Positions 1 to 26,556 of a DNA stretch of 64,000 bases are shown piece by piece. The position numbers and the translations under genes are program-made. The notes below the pieces were generated by a model. The model had not been told where the DNA came from. It saw only the letters and a list, made by a program, of their open reading frames with translations, and ran no database searches. Origin of the DNA: Acaryochloridaceae cyanobacterium VAR_48_metabat_390 (lineage in GTDB: Bacteria > Cyanobacteriota > Cyanobacteriia > Thermosynechococcales > Thermosynechococcaceae); NCBI GenBank assembly GCA_031422435.1, contig JANPLU010000020.1:1-64000 (forward strand), given 5' to 3'. Numbering within the stretch: position 1 is the stretch's first letter; each line of letters opens with the position of its first letter.

Positions 1-140
1 GGGAGCACAATGGGCAACCAAGAATGTCCCTCAGGTTCTCAGACATCGGTGTGCTTACCTTAATGGTTATTTCTCGATATCGCTTCAATTAAAAAATGTT
101 GCCTAAGTATTTCTACTCATCGCAAAAGTGAGATGCTCCC
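1..140 (+). mobile_element. 3' end of an ISKra4-family element (transposase C-terminus plus right terminal repeat), cut by the window edge
   Basis: Frame from nt 2 reads GAQWATKNVPQVLRHRCAYLNGYFS...* (stop at 106), the typical cyanobacterial ISKra4 C-terminus; followed by CAAAAGTGAGATGCTCCC ending at 140. Confidence 0.75.
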
Positions 141-242
141 ATTGAAATTGGAGCTTAGATTAAGTAAAAAGTACGGTCGTAAAAAAGTATCTTGAAAAGT
201 GAAACCTTCTGAGAGGGGTGATATGAGCAAAGCAATCAAGGT

Positions 243-791
243 TTAAGCTGCTGCATCAGCCGTTTCTTTTGGCTTAGTAAAGCGTTGTTTGACCGTTGGA
301 CAGAAAGGACGACAGCTTCTCGGTTTTCCTGAAGGCCAACCAGGCGATTTTCCACGAGGTTTCAGGTCAGGAGCAGGTGAACCAATCCTCGCTAAAAGTA
401 GAGCAAAAGTATTCGCGATTCCACCTGGGGTAAGTTTGTTCACGGTTTTTTGCTAAGGTAAGGCAAAGGTGAATCGATCACAACATCACGGGTAAGCTGG
501 AACTGCCAAGTTATCAACGGCATCAGGTCAGACTAAGTTTCCATCTGTTTAGGAGTAACCAGTTGAGAAACGGTCCAATGGAGACGTTGACGAATAAAGC
601 GATACCAATGCTCAGTTGCAAATCGGCGCAGGTACTGTTTCCAGGCTTGACTTAAGCGATAGTTCCACAAAGGACGCAACACTCCGAGTTGTTAACACTG
701 CATCCATTAAGTCGAACAGGGCATCTCTTCCGTTTCCTAATAATAGGTAGGTGCGATGGCGAAAGTTCCCAAGATTCTGTAAACTGGTCAT
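243..791 (-). pseudogene. Internally deleted cyanobacterial DDE transposase remnant (NF041680-like)
   Basis: N-terminus MTSLQNLGNFRHRTYLLLGNGRDALFDLMDAVLTTRSVASFVELSL joins directly to C-terminal segments (YLRRFATEHWYRFIRQRLHW; RIGSPAPDLKPRGKSPGWP) that contain in-frame stops. Confidence 0.75.
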
Positions 792-1194
792 TGTGGAGAC
801 TAGTAGGTTTACAAACTTTTAGCTTCCATCATTAAGTGGTCAATCTTCCATAGCTGACTGCTTTTCCTTACTATTTACTAAAATCCAAATATTATATTCT
901 TTAATTAACTTACTTAGCTCAAGCTAAGCAGGAAGTATCTCAAAGCTAAAAATTTAATACCTTAAAGAGTTTCAGAGTATATAATTTAAAAATTTCAAAA
1001 AATATTCCTAGAGCTTTAGGCTGGACTCAGTTAAACGTGATAGACCAAGATGATAGACTGGATAAAGCACCTTTCTCAATCGACTTATAAATTAGTTTAA
1101 ATTTTGTTGCAATTATATCCTTCAATCTTTAGTGACCTGATAACAAAGATAATACGGAAACAAAAATCTTGGATAAAGACTCTCTAGGTGCACA

Positions 1195-2115
1195 ATGCTT
1201 CCTGTAACTTCAATTAAATGGCGCAACTCATTCTTTTATATAAACCTTTTACCACTTCTTGCCACGGTTGTGTTGGTTGGTGCTGCACTATTGTCTCAGG
1301 CTAAGGCGAGCAGAGCTTCTGAGACTATTAACAATAAGCTATCTATTGGAAGCCGTCCACACCCTAATGTGGCACAGGTGCCTCTAAAGAAAGAGAGTCC
1401 TGCTGCCCCTGCCCCCCCAGAAGTGCCCCCCGCCGCTGCAGAAGAAGTGCCTGATAAACCCAGCGCTGGCGCATTGCCCGGGCCGACGGCTAGCGAAAAG
1501 GAAGTTGTAACTATTCCTCAATCTTCAGCTATTATCGTTTCATTTCCAGCGGAAATAACTCTAGATCCAAAGCGGAAGCATAATATTCCCATCACGCTTC
1601 CGCTTTTACAGCCAATCGTAGACACGGATGGACAAGTTGTAGCACCTGCTAAATCTCTGGTGTTGGCTCGGCTTAAATCCATAAAGGGTGGAGATTTGAT
1701 TGAGGTAACTGCGGTTGTGGTGGGTGGGCGTGTAATTCCCCTTCATTCAGAGGGAATTTTAGTCCCAGCTCAACATAGGTCAGAGGATGTTAGTGCCTTC
1801 TATACTAACGCTAACCCTAGCCGTCTTAATAATATAATTGGGAGTGCACAAACTTGGCAGTTCACACAATCTTTCGGGGGAGACAGTAATAATTCTAGTA
1901 TTAGTAAGTTTGACTTACTAGGTTTAGGTTTGGCAATCGGATTTGGTGCTACTCAGCCGGTCAGTAGGCTGCCGCCCGCTTTTGTTAATATTGCGCAAGG
2001 TTCTGTCTATATTTTGACATTAGCCACCCCAATTATTATTCCTAAGAGATTAGTGGAAACAGGAATTCAGATTCGCGAAAGTCTTGGCGAAGAGGGTACA
2101 ATTTCTCCCAGATAG
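1195..2115 (+). CDS. Secreted or membrane-anchored hypothetical protein with Pro/Ala linker and beta-rich C-terminal domain (TrbI-like annotated cyanobacterial family, tentative)
   Basis: 306-aa ORF, N-terminal hydrophobic segment, PAAPAPPEVPP linker, IPQSSAIIV...ITLPLLQPIVDTDGQVVAPAKS motif. Confidence 0.6.
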   Translation: MLPVTSIKWRNSFFYINLLPLLATVVLVGAALLSQAKASRASETINNKLSIGSRPHPNVAQVPLKKESPAAPAPPEVPPAAAEEVPDKPSAGALPGPTASEKEVVTIPQSSAIIVSFPAEITLDPKRKHNIPITLPLLQPIVDTDGQVVAPAKSLVLARLKSIKGGDLIEVTAVVVGGRVIPLHSEGILVPAQHRSEDVSAFYTNANPSRLNNIIGSAQTWQFTQSFGGDSNNSSISKFDLLGLGLAIGFGATQPVSRLPPAFVNIAQGSVYILTLATPIIIPKRLVETGIQIRESLGEEGTISPR

Positions 2116-2513
2116 ATTGGAATTTTGCGCTTGCCAGCATAGTAACTGACGCAGTTGTTAAGCTTAGCAACTACTTTTGAGCTAGATCTGGCGGGTGCGT
2201 AGGTGCCGTTTGTCTGAGTCGACCAATCTGTGAAAGTATTATCCTCGCCTAATCTCGGCTGTAAAAAATTTAGGATGCTTCTTAATGGGTCCGTCGAGAT
2301 AGGCACGATATCTTGCAATATCTTCGACACGTACTGAATACTCAAGATTCCGTGGCATTGACAGACGAAATGTTTTGTTCCCTGATATGCTTCGGGCTTT
2401 GCGCTTTTATCCAGGACTGTTCTTTAAACTTACCTGCAACGCTATCTTACCAAACATAAACTAACTCAGAACCAGCAACCTTTGACCCTCACCCCCAACC
2501 CCTCTGCCCTTTA

Positions 2514-3299
2514 CTACTTTAGAGACGTATTATTGCGATTGACGACTACTCCTAATAAGTTCTCTAGGCTTTCGATTTGAACCTTGCCCATCAACATTTC
2601 TCCATTCATGATCAAGAAGGGCGTTCCTGAAACTCCGATCTCTTCTGCTAAAGCAATATCTTTCCTAATAGCAGCCTCCGCTGATGTTCCTTGTCGATCT
2701 TGGTTGAACTGATCAAGACTCAGGCTCAACTCTTGGGCGATCGCCACATACAACTTCTCTCCTAGTTGCTCCTGTTTTGCAAATAGTGCATCGTGGTACT
2801 CCCAGAATTTTCCTTGTTGACCTGCTGCCCAGGCTGCTTTAGCTGCAGGCATTGCTTCAGAATGAACTGCGGTGAGCGGTAAGTGCTTATAAACTAATGC
2901 AACATCTTTCTGATGATTTTCCATAAACTTTTTTATGGGTTCTAGGGCTGTTGCACAGTATGGACATTGAAAGTCAGAAAATTCTACAAGTACAATTTTG
3001 CTGCGCACAGAGCCTCTAACAGGCGAATGCCCAATCACGGCTTGGGCATTCGCCCTCATTTTCTGTAAAAATTCCTGTCTTGCCTTCTGCTGTTGTTCTG
3101 ATTTCTGACGTTGGTAAGTTTGAATAGATTCGATGACCGCTTCAGGGTTCTTTCGAATAATTTGTAAAACCTGTTGCTCTAAGTCTGGTGTTTCCGCTTG
3201 ACTGGGCACAGCCCAACTTAGCACAATGGTACCTATCACTTCAAAGATTAGAAAAGAAAGGAAAAATGGACGGCATAACTTCAATAAGATACATCCCAC
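2514..3299 (-). CDS. DsbA family thiol-disulfide oxidoreductase
   Basis: Signal peptide, EFSDFQCPYC active site, YKHLPL, GVSGTP cis-Pro motif. Confidence 0.92.
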   Translation of the reverse strand: MGCILLKLCRPFFLSFLIFEVIGTIVLSWAVPSQAETPDLEQQVLQIIRKNPEAVIESIQTYQRQKSEQQQKARQEFLQKMRANAQAVIGHSPVRGSVRSKIVLVEFSDFQCPYCATALEPIKKFMENHQKDVALVYKHLPLTAVHSEAMPAAKAAWAAGQQGKFWEYHDALFAKQEQLGEKLYVAIAQELSLSLDQFNQDRQGTSAEAAIRKDIALAEEIGVSGTPFLIMNGEMLMGKVQIESLENLLGVVVNRNNTSLK

Positions 3300-3520
3300 G
3301 TGCTTAGATAAACCTACTATTACAAAAAAATAATTTACGCTGACAACCTCAACATATCATTCAGAAAAATCATTGAATGGCATCGAGAGAATTTCTATAG
3401 AGACTCAACCTGATTCTGAAATAGAGATTGAGCACTTCTACTTTAAGTAAAAAGAAAGATATTTTATTGAGAAATTCTTTGTCTCTAGAGATTCAGCTCA
3501 TCTATATAACCTTACTTAGA

Positions 3521-3641
3521 AATAGCCCAGACAGTTTCTGCAAGTCAGCGTCAGAATAAAGTTTCAAGCCTATTCTGGCATGGAACAGCTAACAAGGAAT
3601 CAAGGATTTCAGCCTCTCTTCAGAAAACTGTCCGGGCTATT
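3521..3641. mobile_element. MITE-like element
   Basis: Terminal inverted repeats AATAGCCCAGACAGTTTCTG / CAGAAAACTGTCCGGGCTATT; ACTTAG direct repeat on both flanks (3514-3519, 3643-3648). Confidence 0.65.
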
Positions 3642-3673
3642 GACTTAGATTAATGCCTTACATAGTTGGCGAA

Positions 3674-4015
3674 CTATTTGGTGCAGAGGAAGGGAGTTCT
3701 ATCATTTGCACTGGTACTAATGGAGCCACTACATCCACTACCGTATTCGGAAGCTGCGGATGGAGTGGGTATGACGCCAGCAAATATAGGCCAGTTACCC
3801 CCACAAGTAAAACATAGTGCAGCCGCATTAAGTTTTACTTCGCCGGTACCTACCCCTATCGATGGGGCTACGCCAGGGGCAGGTTTTACACGACTCGTTG
3901 ATGCAGGTGTGTTGGTAATACCCTGACGAGGAATGGTCTTTGTTTGAGCTGTTGCCACTGCCGCGGAGAAAAGGACTGGGGCTAAAGAAAACAGAGCAAT
4001 ATGTTTGATATTCAT
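3674..4015 (-). CDS. Small secreted four-cysteine protein (113 aa)
   Basis: Likely start MNIKHIALFSLAPVLFSAAVATA (signal peptide); C-terminal CFTCGGNWPIFAG...GSGCSG...PFLCTK. Confidence 0.75.
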   Translation of the reverse strand: MNIKHIALFSLAPVLFSAAVATAQTKTIPRQGITNTPASTSRVKPAPGVAPSIGVGTGEVKLNAAALCFTCGGNWPIFAGVIPTPSAASEYGSGCSGSISTSANDRTPFLCTK

Positions 4016-4234
4016 CTTAAAAATCCTCAGATTAATATGTACACATTTTGACATCAAAGGTTTAGGAAACCTTTGATGAAATGGGGACTCACACAGCTTT
4101 TCAAAAAGGAATTCAATAAAATAACCGTGAAATAAAGATTGCTTCGACACTAGAGTAATAAGGTCGAAACAAATATTTCTTGGCTATGCCGAAAACAAAT
4201 ATATCAAAAACTAAATAGGTTAACTTGTTTTAGA

Positions 4235-4368
4235 TTAGGGATGCAGCGTAAAGCGGGACATTTTAGAACATCCTGCTTCTAGCTAAATTACCGGAGTGTA
4301 AGCATCAGAGACTGAAAGGCTCAAACCCAGGCTATATAAGCTGTCCCGCTTTAAGTTGATACCCTTAA
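4235..4368. mobile_element. MITE-like element
   Basis: Imperfect terminal inverted repeats with perfect core TAAAGCGGGACA / TGTCCCGCTTTA. Confidence 0.55.
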
Positions 4369-4622
4369 ATTACATAGGTCAACTACTTAGCTTTGTTAAC
4401 TTGCAATCAACTTCCTAACAAAAAGATATGTCATATATGGAAAGTTTTGTTTGTACGTATGCAATTCTTTACAAAGTTTGCAAGAGGCAATATTTAAGGA
4501 CGTACAGGATTAGATAGGATGCAGTTATGTTCTAGATCCGTTTGATTTTAATCAAACCTCACAACCAAACCCAGAGCGATTAATGAATAATTCAGTCATA
4601 AAATCATGCATCGCAATAGATT

Positions 4623-4723
4623 AGGGCTTACGCAAAGCCTAGCGTAGTAGTGTATTTCGGGATAGTCCAAACGCTATATGTAGCGCATGAGTGAAGTCTT
4701 AAACCTCTTTTTGCGTAAGTCCC
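4623..4723. mobile_element. MITE-like element (GGACTTACGCA-type cyanobacterial repeat)
   Basis: Inverted repeats GGGCTTACGCAAA / TTTGCGTAAGTCC flanked by direct repeat ATAGATT (4616-4622, 4724-4730). Confidence 0.7.
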
Positions 4724-4741
4724 ATAGATTTGGAAACCATT

Positions 4742-4846
4742 TATAGCGGCTCCGTCCCTGGTGTAGTACAGATTCAAATCTGAAAGTCTCTCAATATAAA
4801 GCTTTCAGGATTTCTCTCGTACTTTACGAGTTCAGTAACCGCTATA
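4742..4846. mobile_element. MITE-like element (TATAGCGG...CCGCTATA type)
   Basis: Terminal inverted repeats TATAGCGG / CCGCTATA about 105 bp apart. Confidence 0.5.
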
Positions 4847-4932
4847 GTTTCTTGGGCCAATCGCTTAATCCGTGTACGGAAAGCTAAAAGTTTGTGCTTA
4901 ATTCTTTGGGTGTTGCGCTTGCCCACTTTATG

Positions 4933-5065
4933 GAGAGCATCTCACTTTGGCAAAAGCATTGACTCAAGAGGAGTTGAGAAAACCCCTGATGTAAAGATAC
5001 CTGAGCGCCAGCATCCGATTGATATTTCCAGGCTTCCATTATGCGCCCGTCAACCGTAGCCTTGG
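4933..5065 (-). mobile_element. Degenerate ISKra4 3' end remnant
   Basis: GAGAGCATCTCACTTTGGCA matches the reverse complement of 121-140 at 17/20; minus strand reads RLTGA*WKPGNINRMLALRYLYIRG, similar to the ISKra4 C-terminus. Confidence 0.6.
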
Positions 5066-5165
5066 GTCAACAATCAGCTCAAGAATATCTATCAGGTTGA
5101 CCATTGATGCTATCGCAGTCGCTTCAACTTTCTGCTAAATCTGTCGAATTGTCTTGGCTTGAACC

Positions 5166-5199
5166 AGCTGCCGATAGACTTATAAGTCTATCGGCAGCT
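5166..5199. repeat. Perfect 34-bp palindrome with no loop
   Basis: AGCTGCCGATAGACTTATAAGTCTATCGGCAGCT equals its own reverse complement. Confidence 0.95.
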
Positions 5200-5480
5200 C
5201 ATGATAGTGATCTTTTTTGGAGCGCACTCCACCAGGAACCTTCTAAATTAAGAATTTAGGCATATATTTATTTAAGAGCTTAATACAATAATTTATATTA
5301 TTAAGTTATTTTAACTTACCTAATACCTAGTAAAGTGCTTGAAACGTTTTTTAACAAGGCTTTTACCCTATTTTAATTGCTTTGGTATAAAAGCATACAA
5401 AGCTTTCAGAAATTTAATTGCCTATCGTGAGTTTTTAATCTTATATTAGTTATAAATTGAATTTGACTTCATTAAAAACT

Positions 5481-6737
5481 ATGAAAAGAGATTATTTGCC
5501 ATTAGTGATATTGGCTAGTTTTGCTGGACTTTCACTTTTCTCCTTTTCGGCTCTTGCTCAAACGGCTAATACTCCAGGTGCAGGAACAACTTCTGGAGGG
5601 CCAACTGCCCCGCGTGCAAGCGCTGGTGTAGGGACAATTTCGGGTAATCAAAGCCGAATGGGGAAGGTTTCTGAACGCGAGGTGCAGAGGCTACTTAGCA
5701 CCCAATCCTCCACTACGGGTCAAGCTGGCGGTCGGGTTGCGCCAACCACTAAGGGTAGTTCCTCAAAGATTGAAACCCCTACCGGTGCAGGTACACGCAC
5801 CTACGGCACCGCAGCTCTGCACTTCACCCATGCCAGGGTGGCAAACCTCACTACAGGAGCATCTAATCAGCCTGTAAGCGGCTACCCCTATGTTGCCAGT
5901 GGTCGACTTTGGATGGGATTTCAGACAAGGGAAACATACGATTTTTCCTGCTCCGCTTCCTTGATTGGGCCGGGGGTTATTGTTACTGCCGCGCACTGCA
6001 TTGCAAGTTTTGGGGGGGGGGCTGCGAGTCTTGCCAAACACGTTCGATTTATTCCAGCCAACTTCGGTAACACCCTCACAAGCGGTCCCTACGGATCTTG
6101 GTACTGGTCTGGATCTCGATTGGCGACAGCCTACCTTAATGGTACCGATCCAGATACCGGAACGGGTGTTGTCACCAACAACGATGTTGCAGTGATTGAG
6201 CTACAAAAGCGGAATAGCCTTGGTGCGCTGGTCTACCCGTATGCATATGCTCCCGTTTTTACCTATGGATATGGATGGAACTACAACGCATCTAGCGTTA
6301 CTCCCAATGGTCGACAAGAGATGACTTCATTGGGCTACCCTGGTAATTACGATTCTGGACAGCAGATGCAACGTTTTGACAGCTTGGCAACCCCCACCGG
6401 CTCTGGTGCCGATGGTAACCCTTACCAATGGATTAGGGGCGGCAACATGTCTCCAGGATCAAGTGGTGGACCCTGGTTAGTGAATTTTGGCACTGTTCCA
6501 GTCCAATCCGGAGGAACTTTGGGGACGGGAGGCAGAAACTGGGTTGTAGGTGTCACAAGCTGGTGGACGGGAGACGATGTTAAAAGGAATGGAGCCTCTC
6601 GTTTCGGTCAAAATGCTCAATTCCCAAATGCCAGTTATGTATTTAACGGCATCAATTATGGGGCAGGGAACATCGGTGCCTTGATGCAGGCTATCTGTGG
6701 TGTAGATGGTGGCCGAGTCAGGGGAGCTTGTTTTTAA
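5481..6737 (+). CDS. Secreted trypsin-like (S1, V8-like) serine protease with low-complexity pro-region
   Basis: Signal peptide from MKRDYL; catalytic triad motifs TAAHC, NNDVAVI, PGSSGGP; CSASLIG/AAHC disulfide pair. Confidence 0.9.
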   Translation: MKRDYLPLVILASFAGLSLFSFSALAQTANTPGAGTTSGGPTAPRASAGVGTISGNQSRMGKVSEREVQRLLSTQSSTTGQAGGRVAPTTKGSSSKIETPTGAGTRTYGTAALHFTHARVANLTTGASNQPVSGYPYVASGRLWMGFQTRETYDFSCSASLIGPGVIVTAAHCIASFGGGAASLAKHVRFIPANFGNTLTSGPYGSWYWSGSRLATAYLNGTDPDTGTGVVTNNDVAVIELQKRNSLGALVYPYAYAPVFTYGYGWNYNASSVTPNGRQEMTSLGYPGNYDSGQQMQRFDSLATPTGSGADGNPYQWIRGGNMSPGSSGGPWLVNFGTVPVQSGGTLGTGGRNWVVGVTSWWTGDDVKRNGASRFGQNAQFPNASYVFNGINYGAGNIGALMQAICGVDGGRVRGACF

Positions 6738-23573: not shown

Positions 23574-24740
23574 CTAGTTTTGCGGTGAGGGCTGTAGAAT
23601 CTGCTGCTGAATTAGCTGATCGATCAGGGTTGTGAGGTGTGAATGCAGATTGTCGCCAGGGTACTGCGGAGATAGCTGGGCGATCGCCGCTTCCAATCCC
23701 TCCATTTTCAAAATTACCCGCCAAAACGCCGCTGCTTTACCGGACAACCCAAAGGTTTCTCCGGTCGGTAGGTGCCCAATCAATATCTGACCATTGAGTT
23801 CTCCAAAAACAATATTTTCAGTGGGCTGTAGCCAGCCCTGCACCGTCGGCTGTACCTGCATGGGTAAAGTCGTGCCGATGGATGGACGGTTTTTGAGGCA
23901 GACCTCAGACGGTAAAATATGCCAGCTTTGCTCTAGGCTCGTCGTTGAAGGGTTCCACAGCAGATGGTCAGGTTCATTCCAGGGGAAGCAGATATAGTCT
24001 GGTAGCCCTAGCCAATACCGATGCCCTGCCAAACGCGCTTGGTTCTGAGTTTGCCAGGTTGTGTAGTTAGCCCCCATTGTTGTAGGGCCGTGGTCATAGA
24101 GGTCTTGACCGCTCAGGCATTGGATGACGGTCGGTTCACGGATGGCGATCGCCGTTCTCAGATCCGGATGGGAATAAAGGGTTGCAAACACTAGTGCCTG
24201 CTGGGGATATTGCTGAAGCACACGGTAAAACCGAGAGCCGCTAAGGGCGCAGTCATCCACAATGACGACAGGCGTATCACTGGGTTCAGACACATTAAGC
24301 TGTTCAGCGCGTAGATCCAGCATGTAAGACAGCATACCTAACACAATCAGTCCACCCCTTGGCACGCCATAGAACTGAAATTCCCGTAGGGCTTTCGACC
24401 CAAACGTGGTCTTTAATTGGTTAGCCAACTGCTCACAGGCCTTAGTTGCTTCGGCATAGGTGATATATCGCAGTCGCCCACAGGCTTGGTTTAGAAACGG
24501 AGCCTGAAGGCTAATTTGCCCTAATACTTTGGCAGAGAACGTTCCTAAGATTGCCAAAACGGGAGTTGGCGCGGCACGAATAATCCCAAGGCACTGGGGA
24601 ACTTCTTGCCAAAGAGGATGAAGGGCGATCGCTGCCGCAACATAATGCAGTGACTGCTCTAGCGTTGCTAGCCCTAGCTGCTGCCCGTAATGGAGCAGCG
24701 CGTCTTTTTCAAAGGGCAGCGTGTAGCAGCGATAGGTCAT
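23574..24740 (-). CDS. Type I phosphoribosyltransferase-like domain fused to a C-terminal PqqD/RiPP-recognition-element-like domain
   Basis: GVPRGG PPi loop and VVIVDDCALSGSR PRPP-binding loop; last ~80 aa (VFGELNGQILIGHLPTGETFGLSGKAAAFW...LIDQLIQQQIL) fit the PqqD pattern. Confidence 0.75.
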   Translation of the reverse strand: MTYRCYTLPFEKDALLHYGQQLGLATLEQSLHYVAAAIALHPLWQEVPQCLGIIRAAPTPVLAILGTFSAKVLGQISLQAPFLNQACGRLRYITYAEATKACEQLANQLKTTFGSKALREFQFYGVPRGGLIVLGMLSYMLDLRAEQLNVSEPSDTPVVIVDDCALSGSRFYRVLQQYPQQALVFATLYSHPDLRTAIAIREPTVIQCLSGQDLYDHGPTTMGANYTTWQTQNQARLAGHRYWLGLPDYICFPWNEPDHLLWNPSTTSLEQSWHILPSEVCLKNRPSIGTTLPMQVQPTVQGWLQPTENIVFGELNGQILIGHLPTGETFGLSGKAAAFWRVILKMEGLEAAIAQLSPQYPGDNLHSHLTTLIDQLIQQQILQPSPQN

Positions 24741-24743
24741 CGG

Positions 24744-25667
24744 TTAAGTAAGACCAACACAGCCTAGATTATGGGGTGCTAAATAAGATTCGATAAACGT
24801 AATCAGTTGAGGGAGTTGTTCAAGAGAACGCGGTCTTTGCAGATAGGCCATAGGGATTTCTTTGGCTAAACGGCTGCACTGATGAAAGTGCTGTACCCGA
24901 CAGTTTTGGTCATAGAGCATTTTAGTGGCACGTGAATGCTGAATGAGTTCTGGAAATGCCTGGGTGCGCGATAAAGGCTGAATCTGGTTAAAGTCCCCCC
25001 CTTGCAGGACAAAGAGATGCTTTAAGGGGACTGGCATTTGGGCAAACCGAGTTTCTAACCGCTGAATTTGTTTATGGCTTAGCGAATGCAGCAGCGGCAT
25101 TGCGTCAGTCTGGGCACCCACTGCCATCATTGCATCGGGCAACAGCTTTACTTCAGGAAAACTCGGCACCACTTGAGGGGTGGCAGTATCTAAACACAGC
25201 GCCATAACGTCATCGGTGATTAGCCGATAGCCCCGCTGGTGAAAAGCCGAGGCCAGAGTAGACTTGCCCCAGCCACTGCCGCCGAGAAAGGCGATAGCTC
25301 CGCACCAAGAGTCCGCTCCGCATTTAGAGTCCGCCATATCCTCACGCGCCACACAGCTTGCATGAAGCACCATCAGCCCTCGCTGCCGCAGCACAAACGC
25401 CATTGCAGTGCCCAAAACGTAGGCTCTCATCACCGCCCGATCCGTTTCTAAAGGTGCATCTATGATCACTTCGCACCCGTCGCGAATGAGTAGCTTTACG
25501 TTGAGCGGCAGGTCAATCAAAATTTGATTGCTGAGGTCAGGCTCTGCTGCAACCTGATGGAGTGAGTCAAACCGAACCACAATATCTGGCGGTTCAGAAT
25601 CTAAGACAGGCTGCAAAAGCGGCAGTTCTGACTGTATGCGTAAACCGTAGGCAAAAGAGGTGTACAT
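24744..25667 (-). CDS. HPr kinase-like P-loop kinase (type found in lasso-peptide clusters)
   Basis: YGLRIQSELPL N-terminus, LHASCV, GGSGWGKSTL Walker A, LITDD. Confidence 0.82.
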   Translation of the reverse strand: MYTSFAYGLRIQSELPLLQPVLDSEPPDIVVRFDSLHQVAAEPDLSNQILIDLPLNVKLLIRDGCEVIIDAPLETDRAVMRAYVLGTAMAFVLRQRGLMVLHASCVAREDMADSKCGADSWCGAIAFLGGSGWGKSTLASAFHQRGYRLITDDVMALCLDTATPQVVPSFPEVKLLPDAMMAVGAQTDAMPLLHSLSHKQIQRLETRFAQMPVPLKHLFVLQGGDFNQIQPLSRTQAFPELIQHSRATKMLYDQNCRVQHFHQCSRLAKEIPMAYLQRPRSLEQLPQLITFIESYLAPHNLGCVGLT

Positions 25668-26214
25668 CCCGACTCAAAAAAGACCAAACTGCTCCAGACA
25701 GTAAATAGGAACTTACCCAAAAGTCAACCACTTTAGGTCTTATTTTTCTAAGAAGGTCAGTTTAGCGACAAAGTAGAAATGCTAAGCTTGGCTTTCGTCT
25801 AGGGGTAAAGTTCTTACCTTTAAGGATGCCCTGTTGTGGTCTAAGAAATATATTTTTTGGGTCAGCCAACCGTTTTGGCTAATTCTAATAGCCCACTAAC
25901 GTACATCCAGACTAAAAATAAGGATGGCTTAAAGGCGAATTTTGCTCCAAATTGGCAGAAGTGGGCAGCGCAATGGGGGCGTGATTCAGTGCCGCAATGT
26001 GCCCGTTGCGAACGTTGACTTCTCCTCGCAGCATTGTCTAAGCGCCAGCGATCGATTGGTATTGGTTAGCCCAAGGCATGGAATTAGCGCACTGCTGTGT
26101 TTTTCAACTAAAAATTGACTGCCGTTGTTGAGCGCCGAATGCGGATACTGCGCAGGCCACTGTCCATTGAAAACAGGAGAGTATCAAAAATGCCCTGCGC
26201 CGATGTCTTCATAC

Positions 26215-26556
26215 TGATGAACAGAACAAACTCTCTCGTCAGGCCATAATAGAGTTAATAGAGACAATGGGGTTTATCAGTTTCCGTTGCTAAGCAGAGA
26301 GGCAATTGAGCAAATGTTAGGACTCAGTGAATTAAAACAGACGCGGGTTTATCAAGATGCTTTGCAAGAAGGTATTGAACGAGGGCGATCGCTAATTTTA
26401 AAGCTATTGACCTGTCGTGTCGGGGGTCTGCCTGCTCAATCTGAAGCTAAGATTATGAAGCTTTCCATCACTCAGCTTGAAGCGTTGGGAGAGGCACTCC
26501 TCAACTTTTCGAGTGCTGCTGATTTACAAAATTGGCTGACTCGAGTATCTCCTTAG
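26215..26556 (+). pseudogene. 5'-truncated, frameshifted Rpn/DUF2887-DUF4351 family fragment
   Basis: RQAIIELIETM [frameshift] VYQFPLLSREAIEQMLGLSELKQTRVYQ...LEALGEALLNF..DL.NWL; nuclease N-terminus absent. Confidence 0.75.

Follow-up and report, generated by a model that had tools for sequence, protein, structure and literature searches.

Here we report that two adjacent genes in a 64,000-nucleotide stretch of DNA (the window) from Acaryochloridaceae cyanobacterium VAR_48_metabat_390, encoding an HPr-kinase-like peptide kinase, K2, and a fusion of a type I phosphoribosyltransferase (PRTase) fold with a PqqD-like RRE, form a module detached from the rest of a lasso-type system, whose parts are dispersed over several contigs of the genome. 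The assignment of the pair as a RiPP-tailoring module is well supported, and we are highly confident that it acts on a leader-bearing peptide. A preliminary description of this DNA had called the pair an orphan, which is true of its immediate surroundings alone: the window contains no precursor, cyclase or protease gene, and the lasso precursors, cyclase and protease were all found on other contigs. Lasso machinery dispersed over at least three contigs, together with a leader peptide that is unable to form the canonical lasso ring, would be missed by cluster-based mining.

The pair was described as two co-directional genes separated by 3 nt, and both open reading frames are present as such on the minus strand, with all of the motifs read from the kinase (Table 1) and from the fusion (GVPRGG and VVIVDDCALSG). 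Both genes are under purifying selection, with dN/dS values of 0.09-0.17 for the fusion (three comparisons) and 0.17-0.18 for K2 (two comparisons). Among named relatives, those nearest to the fusion are encoded in metagenome-assembled genomes of Thermosynechococcaceae/Acaryochloridaceae and in Altericista sp. CCNU0014. In these relatives, the position of the pair, behind a CHAT-domain gene, is conserved and has no precursor near, CCNU0014 excepted; since it is an intact CHAT gene that precedes the kinase there, the broken remnant in the window identifies the ancestral location of the pair. The downstream histidine kinase gene was considered as a further conserved neighbor and rejected, as it is not kept in relatives. 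A scan for promoters and terminators gave no signal exceeding that of shuffled sequences. A short DUF4351 open reading frame (window 26287-26556, plus strand) adjoins the CHAT remnant and is probably a gene fragment, and the GC content is 0.41-0.43 at window positions 1-6000 versus about 0.50 over most of the window.

Table 1. Features of the pair, its flank and the peptide A2; coordinates refer to the window unless a contig is named.
Feature	Position	Strand	Remarks
K2, HPr-kinase-like peptide kinase, 307 aa	24744..25667	-	LHAS, GGSGWGKST, ITDD
PRTase-RRE fusion (P0001), 388 aa	23574..24740	-	
Fusion N-terminal alpha/beta domain, residues 1-89	24474..24740	-	poorly conserved; generic ferredoxin-like
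Fusion type I PRTase-fold domain, residues 90-288	23877..24473	-	
PRTase landmarks (fusion residues)			PRGG loop 127-130; DDCxxSGxR loop 162-170; CFPWNE 251-256
Fusion RRE, PqqD fold, residues 302-385	23586..23837	-	nearest are the lasso B1 proteins TfuB1 and TbiB1
CHAT-domain gene, broken 3' remnant	25891..26242	-	frameshifted, stop-containing
A2, 53-residue leader-bearing peptide	C134:29329-29490		

Taken alone in single-sequence searches, the fusion matches PqqD (residues 324-382, E 0.0035) and xanthine PRTase (E 0.04), both below the cut-off. The domain assignment is carried by its 525 homologues: among 48 aligned family members, PqqD is matched by 42 and Pribosyltran by 13 (E<=0.01), and the family profile matches TbiB1 at E 5e-11. 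In an AlphaFold2 model built from 48 homologues (mean pLDDT 94), the C-terminal domain has the three strands followed by three helices of the PqqD fold, and residues 302-385 superimpose on TfuB1 (Z 12.3, rmsd 1.9, 83 aligned) and TbiB1 (Z 11.8, rmsd 1.9, 82 aligned). Residues 90-288 of the same model resemble archaeal HGXPRT (4z1o; Z 11.4, rmsd 3.5, 139 aligned), and Foldseek matches this domain to XGPRT at E 5e-6. Thus, the two domain folds anticipated in the preliminary description, PqqD/RRE at the C-terminus and PRTase in the center, were both recovered. The N-terminal domain folds confidently in the model, yet it matches only generic ferredoxin-like domains; no specific fold was found for it (best Z 6.6, best PDB profile E 0.13, no Foldseek match at E<=0.001), and it is shortened in a minority of homologues. 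Other searches gave little: none of the longer fused forms (745-2125 aa) was scored, which is weak evidence, a plasmid search returned only a PqqD match, and the ESM Atlas returned only leads below 0.9.

In type I PRTases, the ribose diol/Mg is bound by the Asp-Asp pair and the pyrophosphate by the PRGG loop. Both elements are kept in the fusion family, where P127, G129, G130, D162, D163, G168 and W254 are 100% conserved in 197 distinct homologues, and R128, C164, R170 and E256 are conserved in 98-99% of them. Aligned with E. coli XGPRT (Gpt), the fusion retains both loops (E 0.0036, at low probability) and lacks 17 residues between them; the spacing from the PRGG loop to the PRPP loop is 34 residues in 162 of the 197 homologues versus 51 in the E. 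coli enzyme. The missing segment is what we take to be the flexible catalytic loop that closes over small bases in PRTases. The fifth position of the PRPP loop, presumably the Asp that serves as purine base catalyst in Gpt, is L/I/F/M and never Asp in the 197 homologues, and the loop of the fusion has an unusual Cys and, in place of the final Thr of XGPRT, an Arg. By these sequence features the fusion looks to have kept its PRPP site with the acceptor side open, and the shortened loop segment would leave a site suiting a large acceptor. On balance, we lean towards the fusion using PRPP to add phosphoribose.

Two other roles have been weighed for the PRTase domain. That it belongs to an ordinary nucleobase-salvage enzyme with an incidental RRE, a reading the preliminary description had set against its own, is extremely improbable. 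Among solved structures, the fold is nearest to those of purine, uracil and orotate PRTases; however, the deletion of the flexible loop makes salvage unlikely, the fusion reaches 13.5 bits against a cut-off of 138 in the NCBIfam xanthine-guanine PRTase model NF006613, the genome carries seven other PF00156 matches, and the fusion has a near-constant lasso context and occurs in only 2 of 401 sampled cyanobacterial genomes. A non-catalytic ligand sensor, in which a PyrR/PurR-like domain gates leader binding or the kinase by the level of PRPP or nucleotide, would explain the loss of the flexible loop and of the Asp at the catalytic position of XGPRT, and both PyrR and PurR share the fold (ranks 11 and 44 among the structure matches). 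We consider it very unlikely, however, given that Y242, W243, W254, E256, W262, W273 and K283 are conserved outside the PRPP loops in an arrangement that resembles a substrate pocket, and that the fusion has no identifiable DNA- or RNA-binding domain.

The kinase K2 has the complete His-Lys-Asp-Asp catalytic set (LHAS, GKST and TDD). In a single-sequence search it matches the HprK-related kinase A model at E 3.7e-7, below the cut-off, and a PDB search returned weak P-loop matches only, HPrK among them at E 0.23. It shares 34% identity with the kinase of the lasso cluster on contig C84 of the same genome, and in a quick tree the kinases of the type found in the window form one clade among the cyanobacterial lasso kinases. 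All 12 fusion-linked cyanobacterial kinases, and none of 14 others, carry a Trp in the P-loop; as a general mark of linkage to the fusion this residue was rejected, since linked kinases outside cyanobacteria lack it.

The family context was taken from a metagenome scan, in which 124 relatives of the fusion were confirmed and the best 80 of the 124 loci were kept; several loci are near-duplicates, so the locus counts that follow are not independent. The genes usually run B1-B2-cyclase-precursor-fusion-kinase, and in many loci an ABC transporter and a PF14907 nucleotidyltransferase come next. Among these best 80 of 124 loci, a lasso cyclase lies within 4 kb in 46 of the 47 loci whose upstream sequence reaches 1 kb or more, a discrete B1 is also present in 11 of the 18 with at least 5 kb upstream, PF14907 is present in 16 of the 80, and a kinase lies within 300 bp in 49, and anywhere in 52, of the 61 loci with at least 500 bp downstream. 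With cyclases, precursors and PF14907 genes beside them, the homologues adjoin RiPP genes, a point that the preliminary description had set as a check. Two precursor-plus-fusion copies flank a trpF gene at L085:7187-11146, and tandem pairs of cyclase genes occur in four fusion clusters (L037, L053, L068 and L079).

No kinase was seen in 9 of the 61 loci with at least 500 bp downstream (best 80 of 124). Four such loci (L030, L031, L054 and L073) form a clade, together with L039, whose sequence stops at the fusion (FastTree, support 99), and their precursors have T-K-A tails; this kinase-less clade suggests that phosphorylation may not be a prerequisite for the action of the fusion. In these four loci the tails read T-K-A-[VIL] and a large surface protein is encoded downstream (SdrD-B matches in L030 and L073). 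B1 and B2 were not detected in L030 and L031.

The same clade bears on a reading in which the PRTase fold is repurposed: phospho-Ser/Thr would be bound in the 5'-phosphate loop and the phosphate eliminated or moved, giving for instance dehydroalanine, with no ribose transfer. Such chemistry would suit the tight linkage of the fusion to the kinase, the Arg170 of the phosphate loop, the conserved Cys164, Cys208, Cys281 and Lys283 and the loss of the flexible loop, and a dehydroalanine-containing lasso peptide is named in the title of a 2025 paper. We nevertheless judge it unlikely, because the Asp-Asp and PRGG elements, needless for a plain lyase, are 99-100% conserved, and because one clade of loci has no kinase seen nearby.

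Precursor candidates beside the fusion were collected by a motif scan, from which 11 were removed before counting (five false matches, the Altericista A2 peptide, two on the opposite strand, and three with doubtful cleavage sites whose cores have no acidic residue at positions 7-9). The remaining 48 distinct cores all have Asp/Glu at position 8 or 9 (48 of 51 with the three doubtful ones included), and all have Ser/Thr in the tail. A G-[ST] motif occurs in 40 of the 48 cores (mean of 24 and maximum of 33 in shuffled sequences) and in 18 of 20 sequence clusters. Since the precursors of fusion-less cyanobacterial clusters also have G-S, often with a kinase neighbor, the motif follows the kinase rather than the PRTase, and it was rejected as a PRTase signature. 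Likewise, Ser/Thr at core position 14 is found in 23 of the 48 cores, against a mean of 9.6 and a maximum of 20 in shuffled sequences, yet in only 7 of 20 sequence clusters, and is a lead rather than a family-wide site. None of the core features is therefore particular to the PRTase. The preliminary description had pointed to PadeK and ThcoK, which phosphorylate the C-terminal Ser of the precursor; here, only 4 of the 48 cores end in Ser, and neither A1 nor A2, the two leader-bearing peptides of this genome, does so, which makes an internal Ser/Thr the more likely target. Five precursors (L014, L015, L026, L028 and L036) have Cys3 in the core, mostly with a second Cys in the tail, and are possibly disulfide-bridged. 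One cluster, L192 (G417:C1:4624000-4642000), encodes two precursors; besides the kinase, three additional genes lacking annotation separate B2 from the cyclase.

Elsewhere in this genome, contig C84 carries a full lasso cluster with B1, B2, cyclase, precursor A1 at C84:31866-32045, kinase and ABC transporter, and two PF14907 (PsmN-like) nucleotidyltransferase genes are dispersed at C16:74347-75177 (L184) and C128:95108-95800 (L185). A leader profile run over the genome gave two significant peptides, A1 and A2. A1 has a ring from Ala1 to Asp9 and a G-S-Q-D tail, and its final residue is Lys. A2 turned up in 10 of the 11 related genomes that were searched, with dN/dS of 0.07-0.12, and its leader is covered by a weak NF033528 match. 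All 22 A2 peptides have the lasso-type leader WxxPxL...G...T(-2); with the cleavage site set by the conserved Thr, none of the 22 has Asp/Glu at core positions 7-9, and all have it at positions 4-5. The motif [LM][FL][AS]S is present in 22 of 22 A2 peptides, with three to six residues after the Ser, and exactly four in the fusion-bearing clade; in A2 of this genome, which ends in Leu, the corresponding Ser49 stands four residues from the end. Two of the 22 A2 peptides end in Ser. In one genome (G420), A2 is arranged head-to-head with a lasso B1. The main A2 copies lie directly upstream of cyanoexosortase A (TIGR03763, over the cut-off) in 11 of 11 cases (L105, L122-L131). Exopolysaccharide genes are near the A2-exosortase region of this genome (L105, G000:C134:29329-30541).

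Several observations connect A2 with the pair. The sole precursor type found beside the pair in the genus is A2-type, the example being a second A2 copy in Altericista CCNU0014, some 140 bp downstream of the fusion. Among 61 genomes searched, a lasso cyclase and a strong A2 match accompany the fusion in all 10 that carry it, which are close kin; a cyclase match with no fusion detected was obtained in 11 others, and nine without a detected fusion encode weaker A2-like peptides. A profile recheck for the fusion in five of these nine genomes found discrete RREs only. A lone HPr-like kinase directly precedes the A2-like gene in six of the nine (L150-L155, L186-L191); the 9-15 kb around these units contains neither an RRE nor a cyclase, and in the quick tree such kinases fall outside the K2 clade. 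The presence of A2-like peptides in the nine fusion-less genomes indicates that A2 tracks the kinase better than the PRTase. The link between kinase and A2 is thus seen repeatedly across relatives, for which we make no claim of a single origin.

These data lead us to a tentative scheme in which the RRE of the detached module grips the leader, the kinase phosphorylates a Ser and the PRTase adds ribose-5-phosphate, with A2 as the main substrate. The predicted RRE of the fusion would bind a lasso-type [YW]xxPxL leader, the kinase would phosphorylate an internal Ser of the core (Ser49 of A2), and the PRTase would move ribose-5-phosphate from PRPP onto the Ser site, either onto the phosphate (+292 Da in all) or onto the free hydroxyl (+212 Da). 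The order, kinase first and PRTase second, is modelled on PsmK followed by PsmN, and the leader may then be removed in trans by B1/B2 of C84.

The same chemistry could instead be directed in trans at A1 of C84, with A2 served by the kinase only or not at all. The fusion elsewhere adjoins true lasso precursors, including four cyanobacterial loci (L017, L022, L024 and L093) in which it lies inside a lasso cluster whose precursors have G-S-L-[DN] tails; moreover, the cyclase is kept in 10 of 10 fusion genomes and A2-like peptides occur without the fusion. We hold A1 to be an improbable main substrate, however, since C84 has a kinase and an RRE of its own, A1 cores diverge widely across the genus whereas the pair and A2 are conserved, and only the A2-type precursor is found beside the pair in the genus. 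Returning to A2 as the substrate, a bolder proposal would make this peptide, with its core of about 30 residues and no ring acceptor, a new non-lasso class carrying a phosphorylated and phosphoribosylated Ser installed by the first peptide-directed type I PRTase, matured in trans by the protease of the lasso cluster and perhaps anchored at the surface by cyanoexosortase A; we regard this full combination as a speculation with a low chance of being right. If true, a type I PRTase with a peptide acceptor under leader control would represent new enzyme chemistry, and a portable tool to put ribose-phosphate on peptides.

The fusion had been presented as one for which no characterized RiPP enzyme was known. 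We found no characterization either, which upholds that part; the architecture itself, however, is already catalogued, as RREFam048 (Phosphoribosyl_Transferase_RRE) is listed as an HMM in Table S1 of the RRE-Finder update (Bregman et al. 2025, PMC12710340). Because the named homologues carry PF00156 and PF05402, RREFam048 is very probably the same family. The entry is a table row, and substrate, context and chemistry are absent from the parts of PMC12710340 that were available. The string 'ribosyl' has no occurrences in the main text of PMC12710340, PMC13352647, PMC7470986 and PMC10036551. A search combining PRTase with lasso, RRE or RiPP, which covered few subscription journals, found no relevant paper, and no RiPP modified from PRPP was found in the literature reviewed. 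A preprint on NAMPT was rejected as a precedent, since the portion available describes removal of phosphoribose, not its addition. What is new here is that the layout is dispersed and that the candidate substrate is not a lasso peptide.

In comparison with known systems, the fusion shares with the type I purine PRTases (E. coli XGPRT, archaeal HGXPRT) the core fold, the RGG loop, the Asp-Asp PRPP loop and a late P-W motif, and differs from them in the 17-residue loop deletion, the absence of the fifth-position Asp, the replacement of Thr by Arg, and the additional N-terminal domain and RRE. The RRE resembles TbiB1 (5V1U) and TfuB1 (6JX3) in fold and sequence; these, however, are discrete proteins serving a B2 protease, whereas the RRE of the fusion is C-terminal on an enzyme fold. 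The closest functional parallels are paeninodin and pseudomycoidin, where an HPr-like kinase with His-Lys-Asp-Asp acts on a lasso precursor, to which K2 is likened by motif. Such kinases (PadeK, ThcoK, SyanK and PsmK) are described as phosphorylating the C-terminal Ser (PMC9266682), in contrast to the cores of the present family, few of which end so (4/48). PF14907 genes are common to both sides, being found in 16 of 80 fusion loci (best 80 of 124) and twice in this genome, whereas a PRTase-RRE is absent from the paeninodin and pseudomycoidin clusters as described in the available parts of PMC9266682 and PMC6993621. In pseudomycoidin, a PsmN-dependent hexose joins the phospho-Ser and is proposed to lock the thread (PMC6993621). 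By analogy, the fusion may be the second enzyme that decorates the phospho-Ser with a sugar, although PsmN is a nucleotidyltransferase fold adding hexose and the fusion is a PRTase fold.
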